Of a DNA stretch of 40,315 bases, positions 3,159 through 33,632 are shown piece by piece. Source of the stretch: a virus (Duplodnaviria; Heunggongvirae; Uroviricota; Caudoviricetes); the IMG/VR virus record IMGVR_UViG_2541047797_000007; one strand, given 5' to 3'. The position numbers were made by a program, and so were the translations under genes. The stretch's first letter is position 1; the number at the start of each line of letters is the position of its first letter. The notes beneath the pieces are model-generated. The model saw only the letters and a list, made by a program, of their open reading frames with translations. It was not told where the DNA came from and searched no databases.

Positions 3159-5621
3159 TCAATTCCCTGTTAATTGCAAAACTTGCTCTTCCAGCTTTTT
3201 AACCCTGCGTCTCATCATCGCAGATTCCAGAATCAGAGCCTCTTCATAACGGATACCGTAACATTCACCAGCCTCGACGGCTTCGCGTACCAGAACCTTT
3301 GTCTGTATAAGTGGGTAAACTCCTGCAGAATGCTCTTCTTCCGTCACATCCCTGTATTCTGCCGGGGTCTCATTCCACTTGTCATAACAGATAAATGCCA
3401 GTCGTGACACATCTATGCCTTCATTCTGAAATACACTGATAACATGCTGCGCAACTGCACCAAAGTGCCATCTTGCTCCGTCTTTACCTTTCACTTCGAT
3501 CCTGTCAAGGTACTGGTATGAAACCCATTCCACTCTTTCCCATGCGTCCAGTATTTTCTCATCAATAACCTCTGGAGCAGTCTTGAAACGCGCATCGGAC
3601 AGCACCGTAAACGCTGACTGGGTAAATCCCCCCGACCATGCACGACCAGCCAACCCAAGAGAATAAGTATTCGTTGTCGATGGTGTCATGGCTGAATCAG
3701 AAAACTGTATATATTCTGAATTTCCAGTAGATATTCGAATATTTCCATTTATTAGCGACATAGTGCCTTTAGTATTATCACTATTGAATAATTTCAATTG
3801 CGAACTTATACCGCCTCCCACAGCCAGAGATACATCGCCTTCAGCAAGCATTCTGAATTTATCTGCAGAAACAAGCGTCTGGTTAGCAAGGTTAAAATAT
3901 TTAACCCACCATTCAAAACGCCCTGACATAGTCCCAACGTACTGACCAAGCGCAGGGACGTGAACAACATTGCTATTTGTAGTGCCGTCTATACTGGAAA
4001 TACCAGTCACCGCTGATGCAGAACTCAGAATATTATTTCTGTCACCCGGATGTTTAATTTCAACAAAGTTCCTGATACACCCTTCCTCGAAGGTAACCAC
4101 GCCGGAAGAACTATACATGGGGAATATTGACGCATAATTACTGCGTGCAGCATCTAAGAAACGAATGGTTGTAGATGTCTGCAGATCTCCTGATTCATTT
4201 TTCCCATCACACCCAGTCATTAGAATATTACTGGCAATATTATTATTTCCCTGAACGGTGACGCCGTGCGCCTGCTTTGCGTCCGATTCAGAGTAATCAA
4301 CCAGCACATCCGAAATCAGGTTACCAGTCCCCTTGCCAACAACTACTGCGGCGTATTTTGGGTTGTTAGCCATTACACTGCTAATGATATTATTCGTTGG
4401 GGCAGTTTCCGTCTCAGTTCCATTGTAAACAACGTGCTGACACTCTTCACCAATAACATTGCTGACAATGTTATATTTTGCTGCTGTTTTAAGTTCCACT
4501 GCACCAAACTGAGGATAATTTCTGGCTATCACACCATCAATTAGCGTATTTTGCGATGAATCAAAAAGCACACAACCTGCTTTTTTATTATTTGCGAACC
4601 CTAAATACTCTCCTCTTATATCTCTAACAATGTAACCTGACGGAATACCATTATCCGGATAAGCGATCAAGCTAAATCCTGGTCCTCGCGTATTTGTAAA
4701 TCTGATATTTTTAACCGATACATCATGGCCACCTGAAAATGACACCTGGTGTCCCTGCACACTATCATCTGATTTATTTCCCATAATTGTTAGCGTACTA
4801 AGCATGCCACCATCGGGCATGTTAAAAACCAGATGATTACCATCTCTGTCATACTGTTTTATCGTTCCCCCACCTGTTCCGTACAAGCCACAACGTGAAA
4901 GAGAAACTAAAGATGTATTGAATACCCCTTCCGGAACAAAAACACTGCTAAACGAATGTAATGATTTTGTAAAAGCATCCTTGTTATCATTTAAGATTCC
5001 ATTTTGAGCTCCAAAATCCTTAATGCTGACACCATCACGCATCTTATCCTGGAACGTTCTGTATACCGCTCCAGAACCATACTGAATAAACCAACCAAAA
5101 CCACCAATAACTCCGGCGATTGCAGCATCGACATAATTACGCATTGAGCGATTATTTACAGCGTCCTGCTCAAGTGATGGATCGGCAAGGTTAGATATTC
5201 TGTTTTGCTTTGCATCGTAATATTTTGCAAGCAAAGATGGTTTCATCAATGCACGTCTGAACCACCCAAAACATCGCTGGATCAGCATCGTCAGGTAGTC
5301 AAATGCATCCTCATGAACTTCGGGGAAAAATTTTCCCTGATTGCGAAGATCAGTCTCCTGCACCACATCAAGCACACGCTCTATCGTGATTCGCCAGCCA
5401 GCAGCAAGCGGCGACGGAAGAACCACTGCACCGCCACTATAAGTTCCCGCCCCTGTTACCGTATAACCAGCATCCAGCACTAGTTTTGTAACGTTACCGT
5501 TAAGGTCAGACACCTGAACAACCAGGTCGGATTTTTTGAAAATACGGAAGGTATACGGAAATGATGTCGTAACGCCGTTACCTGTGTATTCGTTGTGGTC
5601 AACTTCGGTTGAGACCGTCAT
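3159..5621 (-). CDS. Tailspike / tail fiber with conserved N-terminal particle-binding domain, central beta-helix-like region and C-terminal intramolecular chaperone (peptidase S74-like) domain
   Basis: N-terminus MTVSTEVDHNEYTGNGVTTSFPYTF is a conserved phage tailspike anchor motif; Gly/Asn/Ser/Thr-rich central region; C-terminal roughly 150 aa (..LSDARFKT...GARWHFGAVAQ..) resembles the auto-cleaving chaperone domain. SD GGAG upstream of the ATG at 5621. Confidence 0.85.
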   Translation of the reverse strand: MTVSTEVDHNEYTGNGVTTSFPYTFRIFKKSDLVVQVSDLNGNVTKLVLDAGYTVTGAGTYSGGAVVLPSPLAAGWRITIERVLDVVQETDLRNQGKFFPEVHEDAFDYLTMLIQRCFGWFRRALMKPSLLAKYYDAKQNRISNLADPSLEQDAVNNRSMRNYVDAAIAGVIGGFGWFIQYGSGAVYRTFQDKMRDGVSIKDFGAQNGILNDNKDAFTKSLHSFSSVFVPEGVFNTSLVSLSRCGLYGTGGGTIKQYDRDGNHLVFNMPDGGMLSTLTIMGNKSDDSVQGHQVSFSGGHDVSVKNIRFTNTRGPGFSLIAYPDNGIPSGYIVRDIRGEYLGFANNKKAGCVLFDSSQNTLIDGVIARNYPQFGAVELKTAAKYNIVSNVIGEECQHVVYNGTETETAPTNNIISSVMANNPKYAAVVVGKGTGNLISDVLVDYSESDAKQAHGVTVQGNNNIASNILMTGCDGKNESGDLQTSTTIRFLDAARSNYASIFPMYSSSGVVTFEEGCIRNFVEIKHPGDRNNILSSASAVTGISSIDGTTNSNVVHVPALGQYVGTMSGRFEWWVKYFNLANQTLVSADKFRMLAEGDVSLAVGGGISSQLKLFNSDNTKGTMSLINGNIRISTGNSEYIQFSDSAMTPSTTNTYSLGLAGRAWSGGFTQSAFTVLSDARFKTAPEVIDEKILDAWERVEWVSYQYLDRIEVKGKDGARWHFGAVAQHVISVFQNEGIDVSRLAFICYDKWNETPAEYRDVTEEEHSAGVYPLIQTKVLVREAVEAGECYGIRYEEALILESAMMRRRVKKLEEQVLQLTGN

Positions 5622-5725
5622 GTTAAATCTCCAGATAGTCGCAGCACCCGTTGCGCCGCATATCTGGTTATTCTATTACCTGAAAAACCACATATGGATA
5701 GAAAGAGTATGAATACGAATAGATA

Positions 5726-5740
5726 TTACCTTTCGGGTAA
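5726..5740. promoter_or_regulatory. Operator-like site TTACCTTTCGGGTAA (TTACC-N5-GGTAA family)
   Basis: Perfect inverted-repeat half-sites, intergenic between the tailspike start and the plus-strand moron island. Confidence 0.6.
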
Positions 5741-5817
5741 TTTGCAAAACGTGCTGGATAGCAAACAAATTATTTGATACTGTATAAATATACAGTTATT
5801 GCATGGAGAAGATTAAG

Positions 5818-6075
5818 ATGCAGCAGTATCACTATCCACTGGAAGAGGGATTTACCGAAAGGATTCACACGCCGGGAGGCGTCAGGTCACTGGTGGAGGG
5901 ATCGCACTTGATGAAATTACTCCGGGATCTCGATAAGGATGGATTTAATGTCGATGGCCCACTTGCCGAACTGACTGCACTGATTAACTACGTCACCAGC
6001 TCACAGATGTCTATGCAGGATCTGCAAACACATCTCGACTATTGTGCCGAACAATTACGAAAACAAACCAGATAA
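5818..6075 (+). CDS. Small protein homologous to the C-terminal domain of the downstream antirepressor
   Basis: Residues RIHTPGGVRSLVEGSHLMKLLRDL...ELTALINYV...QTHLDY align with Ant C-terminus [24 protein letters not shown]...ELTTMFCYI...QTHAEY. Start chosen at the second ATG (5818), which has SD GGAGAAG; the ORF track starts at 5803. Confidence 0.55.
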   Translation: MQQYHYPLEEGFTERIHTPGGVRSLVEGSHLMKLLRDLDKDGFNVDGPLAELTALINYVTSSQMSMQDLQTHLDYCAEQLRKQTR

Positions 6076-6106
6076 GGTTTGCAATTACCAAATGGAGTGC
6101 TTATAT

Positions 6107-6121
6107 TTACCTTTGCGGTAA
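6107..6121. promoter_or_regulatory. Operator-like site TTACCTTTGCGGTAA
   Basis: Perfect TTACC-N5-GGTAA, extended dyad ATTTACC...GGTAAAT, in the leader between the Ant-domain paralog and ant. Confidence 0.6.
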
Positions 6122-6210
6122 ATTTACATCGCACTCCTCTTGTGCCATAGTAATCGGGCACTGGCAAAATCCAGTGCCGGGATTGGTCTCCCGGATTACT
6201 AAGTGGCGCA

Positions 6211-6236
6211 TACCACGCCAGACGTGGTTTTTTTAT
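6211..6236 (+). terminator. Intrinsic terminator / attenuator in the ant leader
   Basis: Hairpin ACCACG-CCAGA-CGTGGT followed by TTTTTTTA; preceded by further stem-loops at 6140-6200. Confidence 0.5.
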
Positions 6237-6392
6237 GCGTATAGCACAGTCATGCCAGAATTATGGTGGGCTGAATGGGGGTCCGAAAGGACGCCGGTAC
6301 CACTTAGGCCGGTAAGACCAACTCCGTTCAGTTCACCACCATCTGATTGGTCTCAGCGGTGGTGATGTAATTCGCTAAGTGGAGACGCCATC

Positions 6393-7049
6393 ATGAACGC
6401 TCAACTCATCCCCGTATTCAACGGCACTATATCTAACGAAACAGCCCTACTTTGTAATGCCCGCGATCTGCACGCTTTTTTAGGTGTTAAAAAGGTGTTT
6501 GCAGCATGGATTACAAATCGCATATCAGAATACGAATTCATTGAAAATCAAGACTATATTTTGCTTTCCAATTTGGGAAAGCAAACATCTGGTAGAGGCG
6601 GCCACAACCGCAAAGAGTACCACCTCACCCTTGATACAGCCAAAGAGCTGGCGATGGTCGAGCGTAACGAAAAAGGTCGTCAGGTACGACGCTACTTCAT
6701 TGAATGCGAGAAACGTTTAAGACAACAAGAAACAAAAGTGGAGAAGGTCTTGTCAGGCTTCATGCCCGCCATTATGGAGGCGATCAAGCTGGAAGACAAA
6801 AAAGAATACAGTGCCCCGCTGAAGCCCGGCTACCGCAGCCTGATTCATTCGCCGTCTGGTGTTCTCGGCCTGACGGAGAACTCACTGCTGATGAATCTGC
6901 TGAACCAGTTACAGGAAGACGGGCACGACGTATCGGGCGCGGCGGCGGAACTGACCACCATGTTCTGCTACATCGTCGGTGTGAGCAAATGCCTGCGTGA
7001 TATCCAGACCCACGCGGAGTACATCAACGACAAGGCAGGGTTCTTCTGA
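6393..7049 (+). CDS. Phage antirepressor (AntA/AntB-type N-terminal domain)
   Basis: N-terminal region [36 protein letters not shown] matches the AntA antirepressor signature as I recall it; SD GGAG upstream; opposite strand to the surrounding late genes. Confidence 0.75.
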
Positions 7050-7174
7050 CAGAACGGCGGCACAGGGATGTGCCTTTAAATAATTCTGTACGATTGCAGA
7101 CAGGGGGGTGAATAGAGTACTATTACCTTACGGGTGATCCATAGCGATTAGGCACCGATACAGGAGGAGCCCAC

Positions 7175-7223: not shown

Positions 7224-7238
7224 TTACCCTAATGGTAA
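7224..7238. promoter_or_regulatory. Operator-like site TTACCCTAATGGTAA
   Basis: Perfect TTACC-N5-GGTAA, extended ATTTACC...GGTAAAT, 41 bp upstream of the 7279 start; a one-mismatch copy at 7124-7138. Confidence 0.6.
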
Positions 7239-7278: not shown

Positions 7279-7914
7279 ATGCCACAACAACTGCTGAATC
7301 CGGCAAAGGTAACTGAGGTTTTCGCTCATCTGAACGAAACTCCAGACAACCGCGCCCTGTATTCAGAGTTAGTGAACGGCAACGATGTCACATCTGATGT
7401 CAAAGGCGTTTCTCTGGCTCCTGGATACCGCGTTGTCCGTGTAGACGATCGTAAGAAAGGCGAGATTCCACAGGCGCACTTTGAACTGTCATTGATAAAT
7501 GACCTCACCGAAGAGGTAGTGTATTACAATCGTGTCATTATCCAGCCTGACAGCTATCTTAACTGCCGTCCTGTCACGCAGATATTGGTATGGAGAACCC
7601 AGAAGCCTAAGCATCGTGCTGTGCTTCATGATTTCGCCGGCATCATCTTCATGAACTACCTCTTGGAACGGTACGATATCATCGTGTCAGATCGCAACCA
7701 GACTCATGAAGGCATGTCGTTCTGGCAGGCTCGCATGTATGACGCACTGGAACTTGGCCTCCACCTCTATGGTTACGACATGATGACATGCGAGCTGATA
7801 GAGATGAATAACGAGGAAGAGCTTGAGAAAGGTGAAACCTGGTTGTGGGGTGATGCGGAAAACTTCCAAAACAGATTGGCCATAATTTCAAAGCATAAGC
7901 TGCCAATAAAATAG
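7279..7914 (+). CDS. Hypothetical protein (211 aa), moron with its own terminator
   Basis: SD GAGGTGA upstream; no motif I recognise; followed by an intrinsic terminator; embedded antisense in the late operon. Confidence 0.6.
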   Translation: MPQQLLNPAKVTEVFAHLNETPDNRALYSELVNGNDVTSDVKGVSLAPGYRVVRVDDRKKGEIPQAHFELSLINDLTEEVVYYNRVIIQPDSYLNCRPVTQILVWRTQKPKHRAVLHDFAGIIFMNYLLERYDIIVSDRNQTHEGMSFWQARMYDALELGLHLYGYDMMTCELIEMNNEEELEKGETWLWGDAENFQNRLAIISKHKLPIK

Positions 7915-24568: not shown

Positions 24569-24583
24569 TTACCTTTCAGGTAA
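24569..24583. promoter_or_regulatory. Operator-like site TTACCTTTCAGGTAA in the terminase-portal gap
   Basis: Perfect TTACC-N5-GGTAA preceded by AATTAT as at the early promoter; a TTGACA hexamer lies at 24547-24552. Confidence 0.55.
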
Positions 24584-27207: not shown

Positions 27208-27249
27208 AACCACCGTGGTAATAGTTACCGTTGTGGTAATAGTACCATG

Positions 27250-30450: not shown

Positions 30451-30465
30451 TTACCCCTTAGGTAA
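30451..30465. promoter_or_regulatory. Operator-like site TTACCCCTTAGGTAA
   Basis: Perfect TTACC-N5-GGTAA, 3 nt upstream (minus strand) of the DUF1064 start codon. Confidence 0.55.
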
Positions 30466-30512: not shown

Positions 30513-30527
30513 TTACCCAACAGGTAA
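30513..30527. promoter_or_regulatory. Operator-like site TTACCCAACAGGTAA
   Basis: Perfect TTACC-N5-GGTAA in the same intergenic region, 62 bp from the previous site. Confidence 0.55.
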
Positions 30528-32528: not shown

Positions 32529-32759
32529 TCATGAGTAGAAGAAGTATGCCAGTTCTGCTTTTGAGCGCAGCCATTGTCTTGTTTTACAGGCTTTAAAAAG
32601 CCCATTCATCAATACCTTACCTGGCATTTTGCGCTTACCTGTTAAGTGAGTCTGGATATAGTGACTCGTCGTTCCGGCTTCCTGTGCGAAGGCTTCACGC
32701 TCATCCGGAGTAAGTGCAAGCCAGTGCTTTTTGAAATCGAAATGTCCGTTATCGCTCAT
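32529..32759 (-). CDS. Cro-like small HTH regulator (first gene of the early replication operon)
   Basis: 76 aa; segment LTPDEREAFAQEAGTTSHYIQTHLTG resembles an HTH; divergent from the CI-like gene across an operator-rich region. Confidence 0.55.
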   Translation of the reverse strand: MSDNGHFDFKKHWLALTPDEREAFAQEAGTTSHYIQTHLTGKRKMPGKVLMNGLFKACKTRQWLRSKAELAYFFYS

Positions 32760-32791: not shown

Positions 32792-32820
32792 ATATTCACC
32801 CATAAGGTAACAAAAATCAA
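32792..32820 (-). promoter_or_regulatory. Candidate early promoter driving the Cro-like/O/P operon
   Basis: On the minus strand: TTGATT, 17-bp spacer, GAATAT. The spacer contains operator site TCACC-CATAA-GGTAA (32796..32810). Confidence 0.5.
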
Positions 32821-32858
32821 GGATAGTTACCTATGGGGTGCATTTACCTATTGGGTAA
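32796..32858. promoter_or_regulatory. Operator cluster in the immunity intergenic region (three TTACC-N5-GGTAA-type sites)
   Basis: Sites at 32796-32810 (TCACC..GGTAA), 32827-32841 (TTACC..GGTGC) and 32844-32858 (perfect), plus an AT-rich dyad ATATTTATT / AATAAATAT at 32772-32795. Confidence 0.65.
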
Positions 32859-32913: not shown

Positions 32914-33498
32914 ATGAAAAGTATCCAGGACGTCCGCAGGCAAAATCTCAACGACTTGATCGACCGTGAATTCAATGGTGTTCAGACGCGGATGGCAGAA
33001 AAACTTGGAACTCAGGCAAATCTGGTAAACCGCTGGGCTCTTGGCAAGAAGGTTATCGGCGACCAGGTTGCGCGAAAAATTGAAGCTGCCGCCAATAAAC
33101 CCCGTAACTGGCTTGATATCGATCGCTCGCTTTCTCAGGAAGGTTTTCAGCCTGTCGGCCCAAGCGACATTGGTCAGCTGGCGGCTCACAACCTAGAACG
33201 CTGGATGAGCGAAAGCCGCGACCTTTCAACGCAGGGAAAACTTCACCGCGCATCCGGCGTCGCCCAGGTGACAATCAGCCGCCTGTTAAACAATGAGGTC
33301 AGTGTTTCCATTTCCACCCTGGAGAATGTTGCATCCGCATTCGGGCGTCACGGCTATGAATTACTGATTCACCCGCACGACCCTGCGACCATCAACTATG
33401 ACCGCTCGCGCTACGCATTGTTACCTGAAACAGAGAAGGCAAAGATCGAAAGTTACATTGAATTTGTCATCAGCCAGAACGAAAAAAACAAACAATAA
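32914..33498 (+). CDS. CI-like repressor candidate with two HTH domains and no S24 peptidase domain
   Basis: Two HTH-like segments (MAEKLGTQANLVNRWALGKK and ASGVAQVTISRLLNNEVSVSISTLENVA); divergent from the Cro-like gene; followed by an intrinsic terminator; no Ala-Gly/Ser-Lys autocleavage module visible. Confidence 0.6.
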   Translation: MKSIQDVRRQNLNDLIDREFNGVQTRMAEKLGTQANLVNRWALGKKVIGDQVARKIEAAANKPRNWLDIDRSLSQEGFQPVGPSDIGQLAAHNLERWMSESRDLSTQGKLHRASGVAQVTISRLLNNEVSVSISTLENVASAFGRHGYELLIHPHDPATINYDRSRYALLPETEKAKIESYIEFVISQNEKNKQ

Positions 33499-33555: not shown

Positions 33556-33570
33556 TTACCTGATGGGTAA
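33556..33570. promoter_or_regulatory. Operator-like site TTACCTGATGGGTAA upstream of the early-left promoter
   Basis: Perfect TTACC-N5-GGTAA, 20 bp upstream of the -35 hexamer. Confidence 0.6.
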
Positions 33571-33617: not shown

Positions 33618-33632
33618 TTACCTCAACGGTAA
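33618..33632. promoter_or_regulatory. Operator-like site TTACCTCAACGGTAA overlapping the early-left promoter
   Basis: Perfect TTACC-N5-GGTAA directly abutting the -10 element. Confidence 0.6.

Follow-up and report, generated by a model that had tools for sequence, protein, structure and literature searches.

What kind of device occupies the 317 nucleotides (6076-6392) in front of the antirepressor gene ant, and how might it control that gene? The window, that is, the whole 40,315-nucleotide stretch of DNA analysed here, belongs to an epsilon15/phiV10-like phage (Uetakevirus). The initial annotation had seen in this region a structured leader with an internal terminator that could serve as an attenuator, riboregulator or antisense RNA target for ant. 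We found that the structured stretch is an already known kind of phage immunity device and no new kind of system: the region is very probably a secondary immunity (immI-like) cassette of the P1/P7 type that controls ant. The nearest record labels the ant product "putative anti-repressor," and in the related phage ZX5 overexpression of the antirepressor shifts the phage towards lysis (PMC9782041). The gene just 5' of the cassette encodes 90 aa. The features of the cassette are collected in Table 1.

Table 1. Features of the ant cassette and the candidate main repressor gene, with positions in the window.
Feature	Positions	Strand	Basis or remark
Operator TTACCTTTGCGGTAA	6107-6121		Perfect inverted repeat abutting the -35 hexamer; presumed site of the main HTH repressor
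Sigma-70 promoter	-35 TTTACA 6123-6128; 17-nt spacer; TG-extended -10 CATAGT 6146-6151	+	Promoter scan
IsrK-type short RNA, equivalent of the P1 a1/b1 leader	6158..6234	+	RF01394, 67.7 bits
Hairpin 1	6158-6177 (GCACTGG 6158-6164 / CCAGTGC 6171-6177)	+	Sequence
Hairpin 2	6178-6193 (CGGG 6178-6181 / CCCG 6190-6193)	+	Loop shows a1 UUGGUCU 6183-6189
b1 CUAAGUGG	6199-6206	+	Single-stranded
Outer helix GCGCAU/AUGCGU	6206-6211 / 6235-6240	+	Encloses terminator hairpin and U-tract
Intrinsic terminator	ACCACG 6212-6217 / CGTGGT 6223-6228, then T7 6228-6234	+	Independent terminator scan
c4-type antisense RNA	6259..6343	+	RF01695, 61.2 bits; predicted mature form 6265-6341 (77 nt)
First c4 hairpin, GAAA tetraloop 6285-6288	6281-6292	+	4 bp in the window
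Second c4 hairpin	6293-6313	+	Shows b' CCACUUAG at 6300-6307
a' AGACCAA	6315-6321	+	Single-stranded junction of the c4 RNA
Alternative hairpin TCACCACC / GGTGGTGA	6333-6340 / 6358-6365	+	96.5% paired, 2 compensatory pairs
Target site a2 UUGGUCU	6347-6353	+	In loop of the alternative hairpin
Target site b2 CUAAGUGG	6375-6382	+	Overlaps ant Shine-Dalgarno GGAG 6381-6384
ant, AntA/AntB-type antirepressor, 218 aa	6393..7049	+	PF08346 AntA, E = 4e-26
Candidate main repressor, 194 aa, HTH_3	32914..33498	+	PF01381, E = 1e-9

Two Rfam families match the region in tandem on the plus strand, each over the full length of its model: isrK (RF01394) at 6158-6234 (model positions 1-77, 67.7 bits against a cut-off of 50) and the C4 antisense RNA (RF01695) at 6259-6343 (model positions 1-87, 61.2 bits against a cut-off of 45, E = 1e-9). 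The start of ant lies 50 nt past the c4 match. In the window, the c4-a1b1 model (RF03163) scored 39.9 bits, below its cut-off of 46.7, and no P4-specific Rfam match was returned. The isrK-c4 tandem lies 5' of an antirepressor-type gene in all 18 loci that we fetched, which come from very different phages. They include a P1-like Punavirus with icd-ant (L009), APSE-2, VT2-Sakai, phiP27, a Klebsiella phage and a Gifsy-1-like Salmonella phage, as well as phiV10, ZX5 and TL-2011b, which are near-identical over the cassette region. The region thus does have relatives in sequence: two families exceed their curated cut-offs, and P1-like phages share the cassette with Stx, APSE, Klebsiella and Salmonella phages. 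The c4 score of the window (61 bits) is the lowest among the 18 loci because its first c4 hairpin is shorter by one to two base pairs.

The predicted transcription start is G6158, downstream of a promoter that is conserved in 18 of 18 loci, with the -10 element at a fixed distance from hairpin 1 and with A and T invariant at its positions 2 and 6. In the Salmonella prophage Gifsy-1, hairpin 1 begins exactly at the mapped +1 (PMC4825925, S7 Fig). Because the conserved promoter puts the start at about 6158, only some 235 nt are transcribed, so that the supposed 317-nt leader stands as a structured RNA but not as leader throughout. The operator noted at 6107 is present (TTACCTTTGCGGTAA, 6107-6121) and, being DNA 5' of the transcription start, lies outside the transcribed leader. 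Its perfect pattern, TTACC-N5-GGTAA, occurs in 10 copies in the window, against 0.03 expected. Three sites with this motif, at 32796, 32827 and 32844 (one perfect, one with a single mismatch and one with two), are located in the divergent control region that separates a cro-like ORF from the gene at 32914..33498. The shared motif suggests a link between the protein encoded at 32914..33498, a candidate for the main repressor, and the operator at 6107.

The minimum free energy (MFE) of 6076-6400 is -130.7 kcal/mol, compared with -97.4 +/- 5.1 kcal/mol for shuffled sequences (z = -6.58), and none of 100 shuffles was as stable. The folding and covariation analysis that had been proposed as a check thus bears out a structured RNA, the stems being conserved with compensatory changes in the 18 loci. 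Over the whole structure, 19 pairs show compensatory changes and 93.9% of cells are paired; sliding the partners against each other drops this value to 35-47%, and it was reached in none of 500 shuffles, which are blind to kinship among the loci. In the IsrK-type part, both inverted repeats seen initially are present, GCACTGG/CCAGTGC at 6158-6164/6171-6177 (placed before at about 6151-6176) and CGGGA/TCCCG as CGGG/CCCG at 6178-6181/6190-6193 (about 6174-6190). The internal terminator, given as 6211-6236, is genuine and comprises 6212-6228 and a run of seven T residues to 6234. The window hence has the isrK architecture of two hairpins and a Rho-independent terminator, and hairpin 1 carries compensatory changes in 6 of its 7 pairs among the 18 loci. 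RNAalifold missed the terminator on the 18-locus alignment, in which MAFFT misaligns the variable stretch, and we folded the loci one by one instead. The outer helix (6206-6240), which is possible in read-through RNA only, is part of the predicted MFE structure in 17 of 18 loci, with pairs that vary by locus (GCACAUA/UAUGUGU, CGAUAC/GUAUCG, GGCGACAA/UUGUUGCU).

In the c4-type part, the long stem of 17 bp is 100% paired across the 18 loci and has 4 compensatory pairs. The GAAA-tetraloop hairpin, earlier put at 6286-6297, is found at 6281-6292. Its pairing value of 48.6% is an artefact, as most rows are misregistered and the window hairpin is 2 nt shorter; the RNAalifold register shows pairing, with compensatory pairs. 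Both a' and b' are unpaired in the predicted mature c4 fold, and the end of the RNA is tRNA-like (5'-GGUGGG... / ...CACC-A-CCA-3', with the 5' GGU at the base of the stem). The hairpin reported near 6330-6365 was located exactly, but it is no independent element: in it, the 3' strand of the c4 long stem takes an alternative partner. A helix around the Shine-Dalgarno sequence in the RNAalifold output, GGUGGU (6358-6363) with GCCAUC (6387-6392), has compensatory changes in one pair only and was set aside.

Two short recognition sites, each present twice, connect the c4-type RNA with the IsrK-type RNA and with ant. The b' site CCACUUAG (6300-6307) is complementary to CUAAGUGG at both 6199-6206 (b1) and 6375-6382 (b2), and the a' site AGACCAA (6315-6321) is complementary to UUGGUCU at both 6183-6189 (a1) and 6347-6353 (a2). 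These four complementarities of 8, 8, 7 and 7 nt occurred together in none of 100,000 shuffles. The b'-b2 duplex has an energy of -13.3 kcal/mol, and the Shine-Dalgarno sequence GGAG (6381-6384) that b2 overlaps lies 8 nt 5' of the ant ATG. On the plus strand of the 40-kb window there are no further copies of CTAAGTGG or TTGGTCT. As to additional c4 targets in the window, we dropped the candidates, since the four copies of the reverse-complemented a site on the other strand are about as many as chance would give. The 18 loci together show 15 different b' loops and 9 different a' sites, and 5 of 7 pairs have changed on both sides in a'-a2 (96.8% of cells paired) as well as in a1-a' (98.4%). The complement between loop and downstream site averages 7.7 nt for cognate and 4.4 nt for noncognate partners, and none of 20,000 partner permutations, which are blind to locus kinship, reached the observed cognate sum. 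Such conserved, covarying two-site complementarities point away from a classical attenuator, in which a choice between terminator and antiterminator is sensed in cis. What remains of the initial proposal is an RNA-level regulator of ant with antisense target sites, without the attenuator label; "antisense RNA target" alone was incomplete as well, in that the antisense RNA itself is encoded in the region, on the same strand as ant.

Our direct observations are the membership in known families, the covarying structures, the four complementarities, which covary as well, and the overlap of b2 with the Shine-Dalgarno sequence; from work on P1 and Gifsy-1 we infer c4 processing, translational repression, activation by the short RNA and binding of the repressor to the operator. 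In the resulting model, transcription from about 6158 would be driven by the promoter (-35 at 6123, -10 at 6146) beside the prophage-repressor operator (6107-6121). The majority of transcripts would end at the intrinsic terminator (6212-6234) as an IsrK-type RNA of ~77 nt that carries two "decoy" sites, a1 (6183-6189) and b1 (6199-6206). The read-through transcript would hold the c4-type RNA (6259-6343), folded like a tRNA acceptor arm, from which RNase P presumably cuts out a mature RNA of about 6265-6341, by analogy with P1, whose c4 mechanism, including the rule for release by RNase P, is summarised in PMC5320573. The b' and a' sites of c4 would pair with b2, over the ant Shine-Dalgarno sequence, and with a2, in the same transcript or in other copies. 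This pairing would bar the ribosome, so that neither a lysogen nor a superinfecting phage with that specificity would yield antirepressor. Binding of the short IsrK-type RNA to c4, or to the c4 part of the long transcript, would relieve the block. The details must differ from those in P1 and Gifsy-1 because the ORF at the c4 AUG of the window has 3 codons and ant follows directly.

The c4 antisense RNA and the immI operon of P1 and P7 were reportedly characterized by Citron and Schuster in 1990 and 1992. In P1, the icd ORF between c4 and ant regulates ant by translational coupling. The window shares with P1 and P7 a c4 family match above cut-off, with long stem, tetraloop hairpin and second hairpin; the order of elements (a1 b1, c4, a2 b2, gene); two short recognition sites, the downstream one over a ribosome-binding site; a promoter adjoining the operator of the main repressor; and a tRNA-like ...ACCA end, as expected for an RNase P substrate. 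The P1-like Punavirus locus L009 aligns throughout. Unlike P1 and P7, which are plasmid-prophage myoviruses, the window is a 40-kb integrating podovirus (Uetakevirus). No icd-like or orf45-like ORF lies between c4 and ant in the window, and the targeted Shine-Dalgarno sequence is that of ant itself, which is a single AntA-domain gene instead of ant1/ant2. The recognition sequences also differ and would confer a different immunity specificity.

The Gifsy-1 locus of Salmonella has the order IsrK - orf45 (STnc1160) - anrP (Hershko-Shalev et al. 2016, PMC4825925; RF01394). Its short RNA shares three hairpins and a leaky terminator with that of the window; a processed RNA of ~80 nt (STnc1160), derived from the read-through transcript, matches c4, and the antirepressor gene comes next (PMC4825925). 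Experiments in Gifsy-1 established partial read-through into an orf45-antirepressor mRNA, its activation in trans by the short RNA, and Hfq binding (PMC4825925). When IsrK is provided in trans, translation of the antirepressor rises more than 100-fold (139-fold) and a transcriptional fusion 8-fold (PMC4825925). In the published sequence (PMC4825925, S7 Fig), the a1 loop contains IsrK residues G28 and G31; by our own base count their tested partners C162 and C159 fall in the a' junction of c4, which makes G28-C162 and G31-C159 the counterparts of the a1-a' pairing of the window; the count gives C158/C161 for C159/C162 with spacing and partners otherwise the same, a base having probably been lost in the PDF text. 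In Gifsy-1, orf45 lies between c4 and the antirepressor gene and regulates the latter by translational coupling, whereas the window lacks orf45 and has an ORF of 3 codons. The window also has no isrJ downstream (among the fetched loci isrJ occurs only in Salmonella phage SW-37), its promoter bears the operator of its own phage, and the model published for Gifsy-1 is a structural switch in cis that does not invoke c4 (PMC4825925).

According to that model, the read-through RNA folds into a translationally silent form held by pairing between the central IsrK segment and the 3' half of c4; short IsrK opens this form in trans, and c4 is not a diffusible repressor. Native-gel, mutational and 30S-protection data have been published for it in Gifsy-1 (PMC4825925), and by inspection the a1-a' pairing of the window can be extended by four pairs on each side (6178-6181/6323-6326 and 6191-6194/6309-6312). 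We nevertheless consider a purely cis-acting switch unlikely. The window is without orf45, and its 3-codon ORF ends 119 nt before ant; in addition, the switch leaves unexplained the second copy of both sites, which in 18 of 18 loci is conserved and covaries directly 5' of, and across, the ribosome-binding site of the next gene. The Gifsy-1 double mutants G28A/C162U and G31A/C159U leave silencing unrestored (224 and 327 units versus 4; PMC4825925), a failed rescue that would follow from a need for a' to pair with a2 as well. On the other hand, a1 mutations in cis derepress anrP from 4 to 93 or 218 units (PMC4825925), an effect that decoy action alone would not lead one to expect and that suggests a role in cis for the a1-a' pairing, which may aid silencing or termination. 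As for the short RNA of the c4 model, it could well, though short of probably, be the equivalent of the "a1 b1" leader of P1 immI and act as a dedicated anti-antisense RNA, a c4 sponge. If so, one promoter would give rise to all three RNAs of a switch, namely decoy, antisense RNA and target. How much decoy is made relative to repressor would depend on how leaky the terminator is, and immunity specificity would be written in a code of two sites, for which the 18 loci show at least 15 b and 9 a variants. Gifsy-1 orf45/STnc1160 would then be a c4 RNA, with C159 and C162 within a', and the incomplete rescue of the double mutants would reflect the lost a'-a2 pairing.

In P4, the outcome of CI RNA action is premature termination of transcription of the replication genes. 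Like the c4-type RNA, P4 CI RNA (seqA/seqB/seqC; related to N15 CA RNA) is processed from the leader of its own operon and has complementary sites on both sides, upstream and downstream; the two differ in that P4 terminates replication-gene transcription, whereas our model for the window has the ribosome-binding site of the antirepressor gene occluded. Pairing of c4 with a1/b1 in nascent RNA and with a2/b2 might also act mainly through premature termination, at the IsrK terminator or, mediated by Rho, further downstream. b1 (6199-6206) directly adjoins the terminator region 6206-6234, and in P1 a block of icd translation leads to Rho-dependent termination before ant. For Gifsy-1, the authors remark on the likeness to P4 seqA/CI, and there is the 8-fold effect of trans IsrK on the transcriptional fusion (PMC4825925). 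We find it rather improbable that termination is the main outcome, as b2 lies over the Shine-Dalgarno sequence in the window and its relatives, which favours ribosome occlusion as the primary event, and the 139-fold effect on translation in Gifsy-1 far exceeds the 8-fold effect on transcription (PMC4825925). Termination as an added layer is compatible with the c4 model.

The likeness to the sar RNA of P22 that had been drawn is one of role only, an RNA-level limit on antirepressor synthesis in a temperate podovirus. sar is encoded in cis on the opposite strand, overlaps the ant start and has no similarity in sequence or structure to the RNA of the window, which is of the same-strand, trans-acting c4 type and comes from a read-through transcript. 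The immI region of P22 also has the Mnt and Arc proteins, for which no counterpart was found in the window. A sar-like minus-strand RNA spanning the start of ant would share the functional analogy, but it is very unlikely: both Rfam matches are on the plus strand, the conserved complementarities join segments of the same strand, and a scan found no minus-strand promoter-like or terminator-like site within 6076-6392, the sole such sites nearby being terminator-like at 6051-6034 and promoter-like at 6799-6771. The probability that the region works through an encoded protein we put lower still, close to nil. The ORF at 6042..6365 that had been pointed out is present and open in the window (107 aa, TTG start), and translation of orf45, whose counterpart might be sought here, was demonstrated in Gifsy-1 (PMC4825925). 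The TTG start of ORF 6042..6365, however, lies inside the upstream gene, and stops close its frame in the close relatives phiV10, ZX5, Tyrion and TL-2011b; the frame is also interrupted in the majority of the remaining loci. From the c4 AUG, the reading frame runs for anything between 3 and 35 codons across the loci, or fuses with the next gene, and the substitutions are compensatory within RNA stems.

In the literature we searched, no paper links IsrK with P1 c4, and the two that name both leave them unconnected. In our analysis, the P1 c4 and Salmonella IsrK literatures describe one portable cassette, and the Rfam families isrK and c4-a1b1 are overlapping families on the same element; merging their descriptions would sharpen mechanistic models. 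Public records of the relatives have no RNA genes annotated at the cassette, and several have spurious CDSs over the RNAs. For the epsilon15/phiV10-like phage of the window, the cassette would explain how the antirepressor is silenced. The recognition sites differ between phages, with CUAAGUGG/UUGGUCU in the window and CUAAAAGG/UUGGCGU in phiV10, and these differences predict relatives that are heteroimmune at the level of ant, as the phage of the window and phiV10 would be.

The leader of ant carries two adjacent RNAs of known families, an isrK-type short RNA followed by a C4-type antisense RNA. When the whole window was scanned against Rfam with curated cut-offs, exactly two matches were found, both within the gap before ant and both on the + strand: isrK (RF01394), at 67.7 bits against a cut-off of 50, and C4 antisense RNA (RF01695), at 61.2 bits against 45. 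An additional permissive scan gave a match to c4-a1b1 (RF03163, "a1, b1 targets of C4") that scored 39.9 bits and fell short of the cut-off (46.7). Because it overlaps the isrK match, both families describe one stretch of DNA, in the window (6145-6234) as well as in 11 of 18 homologous loci fetched for comparison. Since isrK lies outside the C4 clan (CL00128), the Rfam isrK and c4-a1b1 entries appear to describe one element. All testable features of the C4 and isrK families are present except the icd/orf45 ORF, which belongs to certain operons rather than to the RNA families themselves.

The window is the genome of an epsilon15/phiV10-like podovirus of the genus Uetakevirus; its nearest record, Escherichia phage phiv142-3, is 98% identical across 5640-7130 and 100% identical in the leader (6076-6400). 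The ant cassette is flanked by two operator-preceded ORFs, of 90 aa and 211 aa (7279-7914), neither with a significant Pfam match, and the three adjacent units are apparently repressor-controlled. The initial annotation had described a structured attenuator, riboregulator or antisense target ahead of ant, and the hairpins, inverted repeats, terminator, operator and ORF that it listed are all found in the sequence. RNA 6076-6400 has a minimum free energy of -130.7 kcal/mol, compared with -97.4 +/- 5.1 in dinucleotide shuffles (z = -6.6). The likeness it drew to P22 sar holds as a functional analogy only: sar is an opposite-strand RNA, unlike this + strand cassette, and promoter and terminator scans of 6076-6392 gave nothing pointing to minus-strand transcription.

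Features of the ant leader and its surroundings, with related sites in the window and in fetched loci
Feature	Position	Strand	Remarks
Tail-fibre/tailspike gene	3159..5621	-	beta-helix and endosialidase-chaperone domains
90-aa ORF	5803..6075	+	
Gap between 90-aa ORF and ant	6076-6392		317 nt
Putative operator	6107-6121		TTACCTTTGCGGTAA; adjoins -35
Promoter	6123-6128 (-35), 6146-6151 (-10)	+	TTTACA, 17-nt spacer, TG-extended CATAGT; promoter scan
c4-a1b1 match	6145-6197		
Short RNA (isrK match)	6158-6234	+	hairpin 1 6158-6177; hairpin 2 6178-6193; single-stranded stretch; terminator
a1	6183-6189	+	UUGGUCU, complement of a'; hairpin-2 loop
b1	6199-6206	+	CUAAGUGG, exact complement of b'; shortly past hairpin 2
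Intrinsic terminator of short RNA	6212-6228		6-bp stem, then U7
C4 match	6259-6343	+	17-bp closing stem; GAAA-tetraloop hairpin 6281-6292; second hairpin 6293-6313; single-stranded junction between second hairpin and closing-stem 3' strand
b'	6300-6307	+	CCACUUAG; c4 hairpin-2 loop
a'	6315-6321	+	AGACCAA; c4 junction
a2	6347-6353	+	UUGGUCU, complement of a'
b2	6375-6382	+	CUAAGUGG, exact complement of b'; overlaps ant Shine-Dalgarno GGAG (6381-6384)
ant	6393..7049	+	218 aa; ATG at 6393; AntA/AntB antirepressor domain, PF08346, E = 4e-26
Perfect palindromes	5726-5740, 6107-6121, 7224-7238, 24569-24583, 27225-27239, 30451-30465, 30513-30527, 32844-32858, 33556-33570, 33618-33632		TTACC-N5-GGTAA
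Imperfect palindromes	7123, 27207, 32796, 32827		
ZX5 "ash family protein"	L004:897-1010		CDS over isrK/c4 RNAs
VT2-Sakai orf34	L008:963-1136		CDS over isrK/c4 RNAs
PhiR12_2 hypothetical protein	L013:825-998		CDS over isrK/c4 RNAs
phiP27 L16, N-terminally extended	L010:831-1490		CDS over isrK/c4 RNAs

The recognition segments are named by function, following P1, where b' lies over the ribosome-binding site and a' pairs further upstream. The four matches arose jointly in 0 of 100000 flank shuffles (singly 0.0035, 0.0037, 0.027 and 0.028), and neither target word has a further copy on the + strand of the window. Between loci the a and b sites vary yet change together: AGACCAA/UUGGUCU and CCACUUAG/CUAAGUGG in the window correspond to ACGCCAA/UUGGCGU and CCUUUUAG/CUAAAAGG in phiV10, AGGUCAA/UUGACCU and CCUUGUUAG/CUAACAAGG in APSE-2, and GUUCCAA/UUGGAAC and CCUUGAGCG/GCUCAAGGA in phiP27. 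In the alignment of the 18 loci both sides have changed in five of seven pairs of a'-a2 (96.8% of cells paired) and likewise of a1-a' (98.4%); sliding the partners by 1-3 columns lowered whole-structure pairing to 28-49%. Because MAFFT misaligns the b sites, these were measured by longest perfect complement, which was 7.7 nt for cognate versus 4.4 nt for non-cognate partners downstream, and 6.4 versus 3.9 nt upstream; no partner permutation in 20000 reached the observed sums, in a control that ignores kinship among loci. The co-variation controls as a whole ignore relatedness and phiV10, ZX5 and TL-2011b are nearly the same, but independent specificities are still numerous, the 18 loci having 15 different b' loops and 9 different a' sites. 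In the window, though not in phiV10, GUCUC (6350-6354), which belongs to a2, could pair with GAGAC (6382-6386) in the Shine-Dalgarno region, so here the target leader might on its own hide the ant ribosome-binding site as well.

Hairpin 1 of the short RNA shows compensatory changes in six of seven pairs. The c4 end is tRNA-like, 5'-GGUGGG... pairing with ...UUCACC followed by A-CCA, and P1 c4 is cut by RNase P at GGU (PMC5320573). If cut in the same way, the product here would be 6265-6341 (77 nt), whose predicted fold (-40.7 kcal/mol) leaves both recognition segments free of pairing. The closing-stem 3' strand UCACCACC (6333-6340) can alternatively pair with GGUGGUGA (6358-6365), which is the fourth inverted repeat already noticed by the initial annotation; it is 96.5% paired across loci, with compensatory changes in two pairs, among them a switch from A-U to G-C in the P1-like locus, and would show a2 in its loop as hairpin 2 shows a1. 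Having two partners for this strand, the unprocessed transcript is predicted to have two mutually exclusive folds, in which either c4 or the a2-presenting hairpin can form. A conserved outer helix, GCGCAU (6206-6211) with AUGCGU (6235-6240), pairs the 6 nt ahead of the terminator stem with the 6 nt past the U-tract and is possible only in read-through RNA. It is predicted at the same position in 17 of 18 loci, with complementary sequences that differ and co-vary between loci, and may serve in RNA processing or stability.

The distance from the -10 element to hairpin 1 is fixed in all 18 loci, which also show no variation at the two most conserved -10 positions. The start mapped in Gifsy-1 coincides with the first base of hairpin 1 (S7 Fig, PMC4825925), which by homology would place the start here at about G6158. 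The window has 10 perfect copies of TTACC-N5-GGTAA where 0.03 would be expected, dispersed genome-wide and mainly in control regions between genes. One perfect and two imperfect copies separate a cro-like ORF (32529..32759, - strand) from the gene of an HTH_3 protein (32914..33498, + strand), and the putative operator at 6107-6121 is therefore most likely one of the main repressor. The P1 immI promoter is likewise controlled by the main repressor, C1, of which this dispersed one-repressor operator set is reminiscent. A GGAGTGC/GCACTCC inverted repeat (6094-6100 with 6131-6137) encloses the operator, and in phiV10 (L001, about 1955-1995) the whole segment forms an almost perfect palindrome whose arms are 18 bp long; this could be an extended operator or a transcript-ending hairpin for the 90-aa gene.

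With the leader as blastn query, 251 phage records were matched. The 18 loci fetched include the Uetakeviruses phiV10, Tyrion, ZX5, EC.W1-9 and TL-2011b, a Klebsiella prophage, APSE-2 of Hamiltonella, VT2-Sakai and other Stx phages, phiP27, a P1-like Punavirus with icd and ant, and the Gifsy-1-like Salmonella phage SW-37. In all 18, isrK is followed by C4 after 18-26 nt, on the same strand as a downstream antirepressor-type gene. That gene varies (AntA in the window, Bro-N in phiV10 and ZX5, an icd-like small ORF in the P1-like locus and several Stx phages) while the RNA pair is kept, and the RNA part of the locus is therefore a portable cassette. The TL-2011b cassette is phiV10-like apart from about 1.1 kb (L018 957-2045) inserted between the 90-aa gene and isrK-c4 and annotated with a minus-strand "similar to hypothetical protein" feature. 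Four public records lay protein-coding annotations over these RNAs; the ORF from the c4 AUG ranges from 3 to 35 codons or is fused to the next gene, so these CDSs are probably spurious. Annotation in the phiV10 record is limited to a terminator and a "similar to SF0880" feature. Both RNAs have been reported in APSE phages; the ZX5 study analysed the repressor and antirepressor proteins and did not mention an sRNA (PMC9782041), and we found no description of the cassette in Uetakeviruses in the searchable literature. The locus is thus an unannotated instance of a well-known kind of cassette, in a phage group from which it had not been noted before.

These observations agree with the P1/P7 immI scheme. 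In such a scheme c4 would be co-transcribed with its target and released from the transcript, and its a' and b' segments would pair with a2 and b2, occluding the ant ribosome-binding site in trans. Since the short RNA carries a1 and b1, it would bind the same two c4 segments and thereby activate ant. In Gifsy-1, short IsrK supplied in trans raised translation of the antirepressor 114- to 171-fold and its transcription 8-fold, and was inactivated by G28A and G31A (PMC4825925). In the printed sequence both bases are Gs in the a1 loop UUGGCGU; their tested partners C162 and C159 were counted to lie in the c4 junction ACGCCAA, with an offset of one base, which is probably a text-extraction loss. 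The Gifsy-1 read-through transcript also yields a processed RNA of ~80 nt, STnc1160 (PMC4825925). The authors of that study modelled the locus as a cis structural switch acting through orf45 and translational coupling, remarking only on a resemblance to P4 seqA/CI and never citing P1 c4 (PMC4825925). In the window, however, the ORF at the c4 AUG stops after 3 codons, 119 nt short of ant, and b2 sits directly on the ant Shine-Dalgarno sequence; for these reasons the P1-type reading fits better here than the Gifsy-1 model. A P4-like layer of transcription termination is possible in addition, because b1 abuts the terminator. We raise, as a tentative suggestion that may well prove wrong, that the P1 a1/b1 leader and IsrK represent a single anti-antisense decoy; if so, two separately described systems would be unified.
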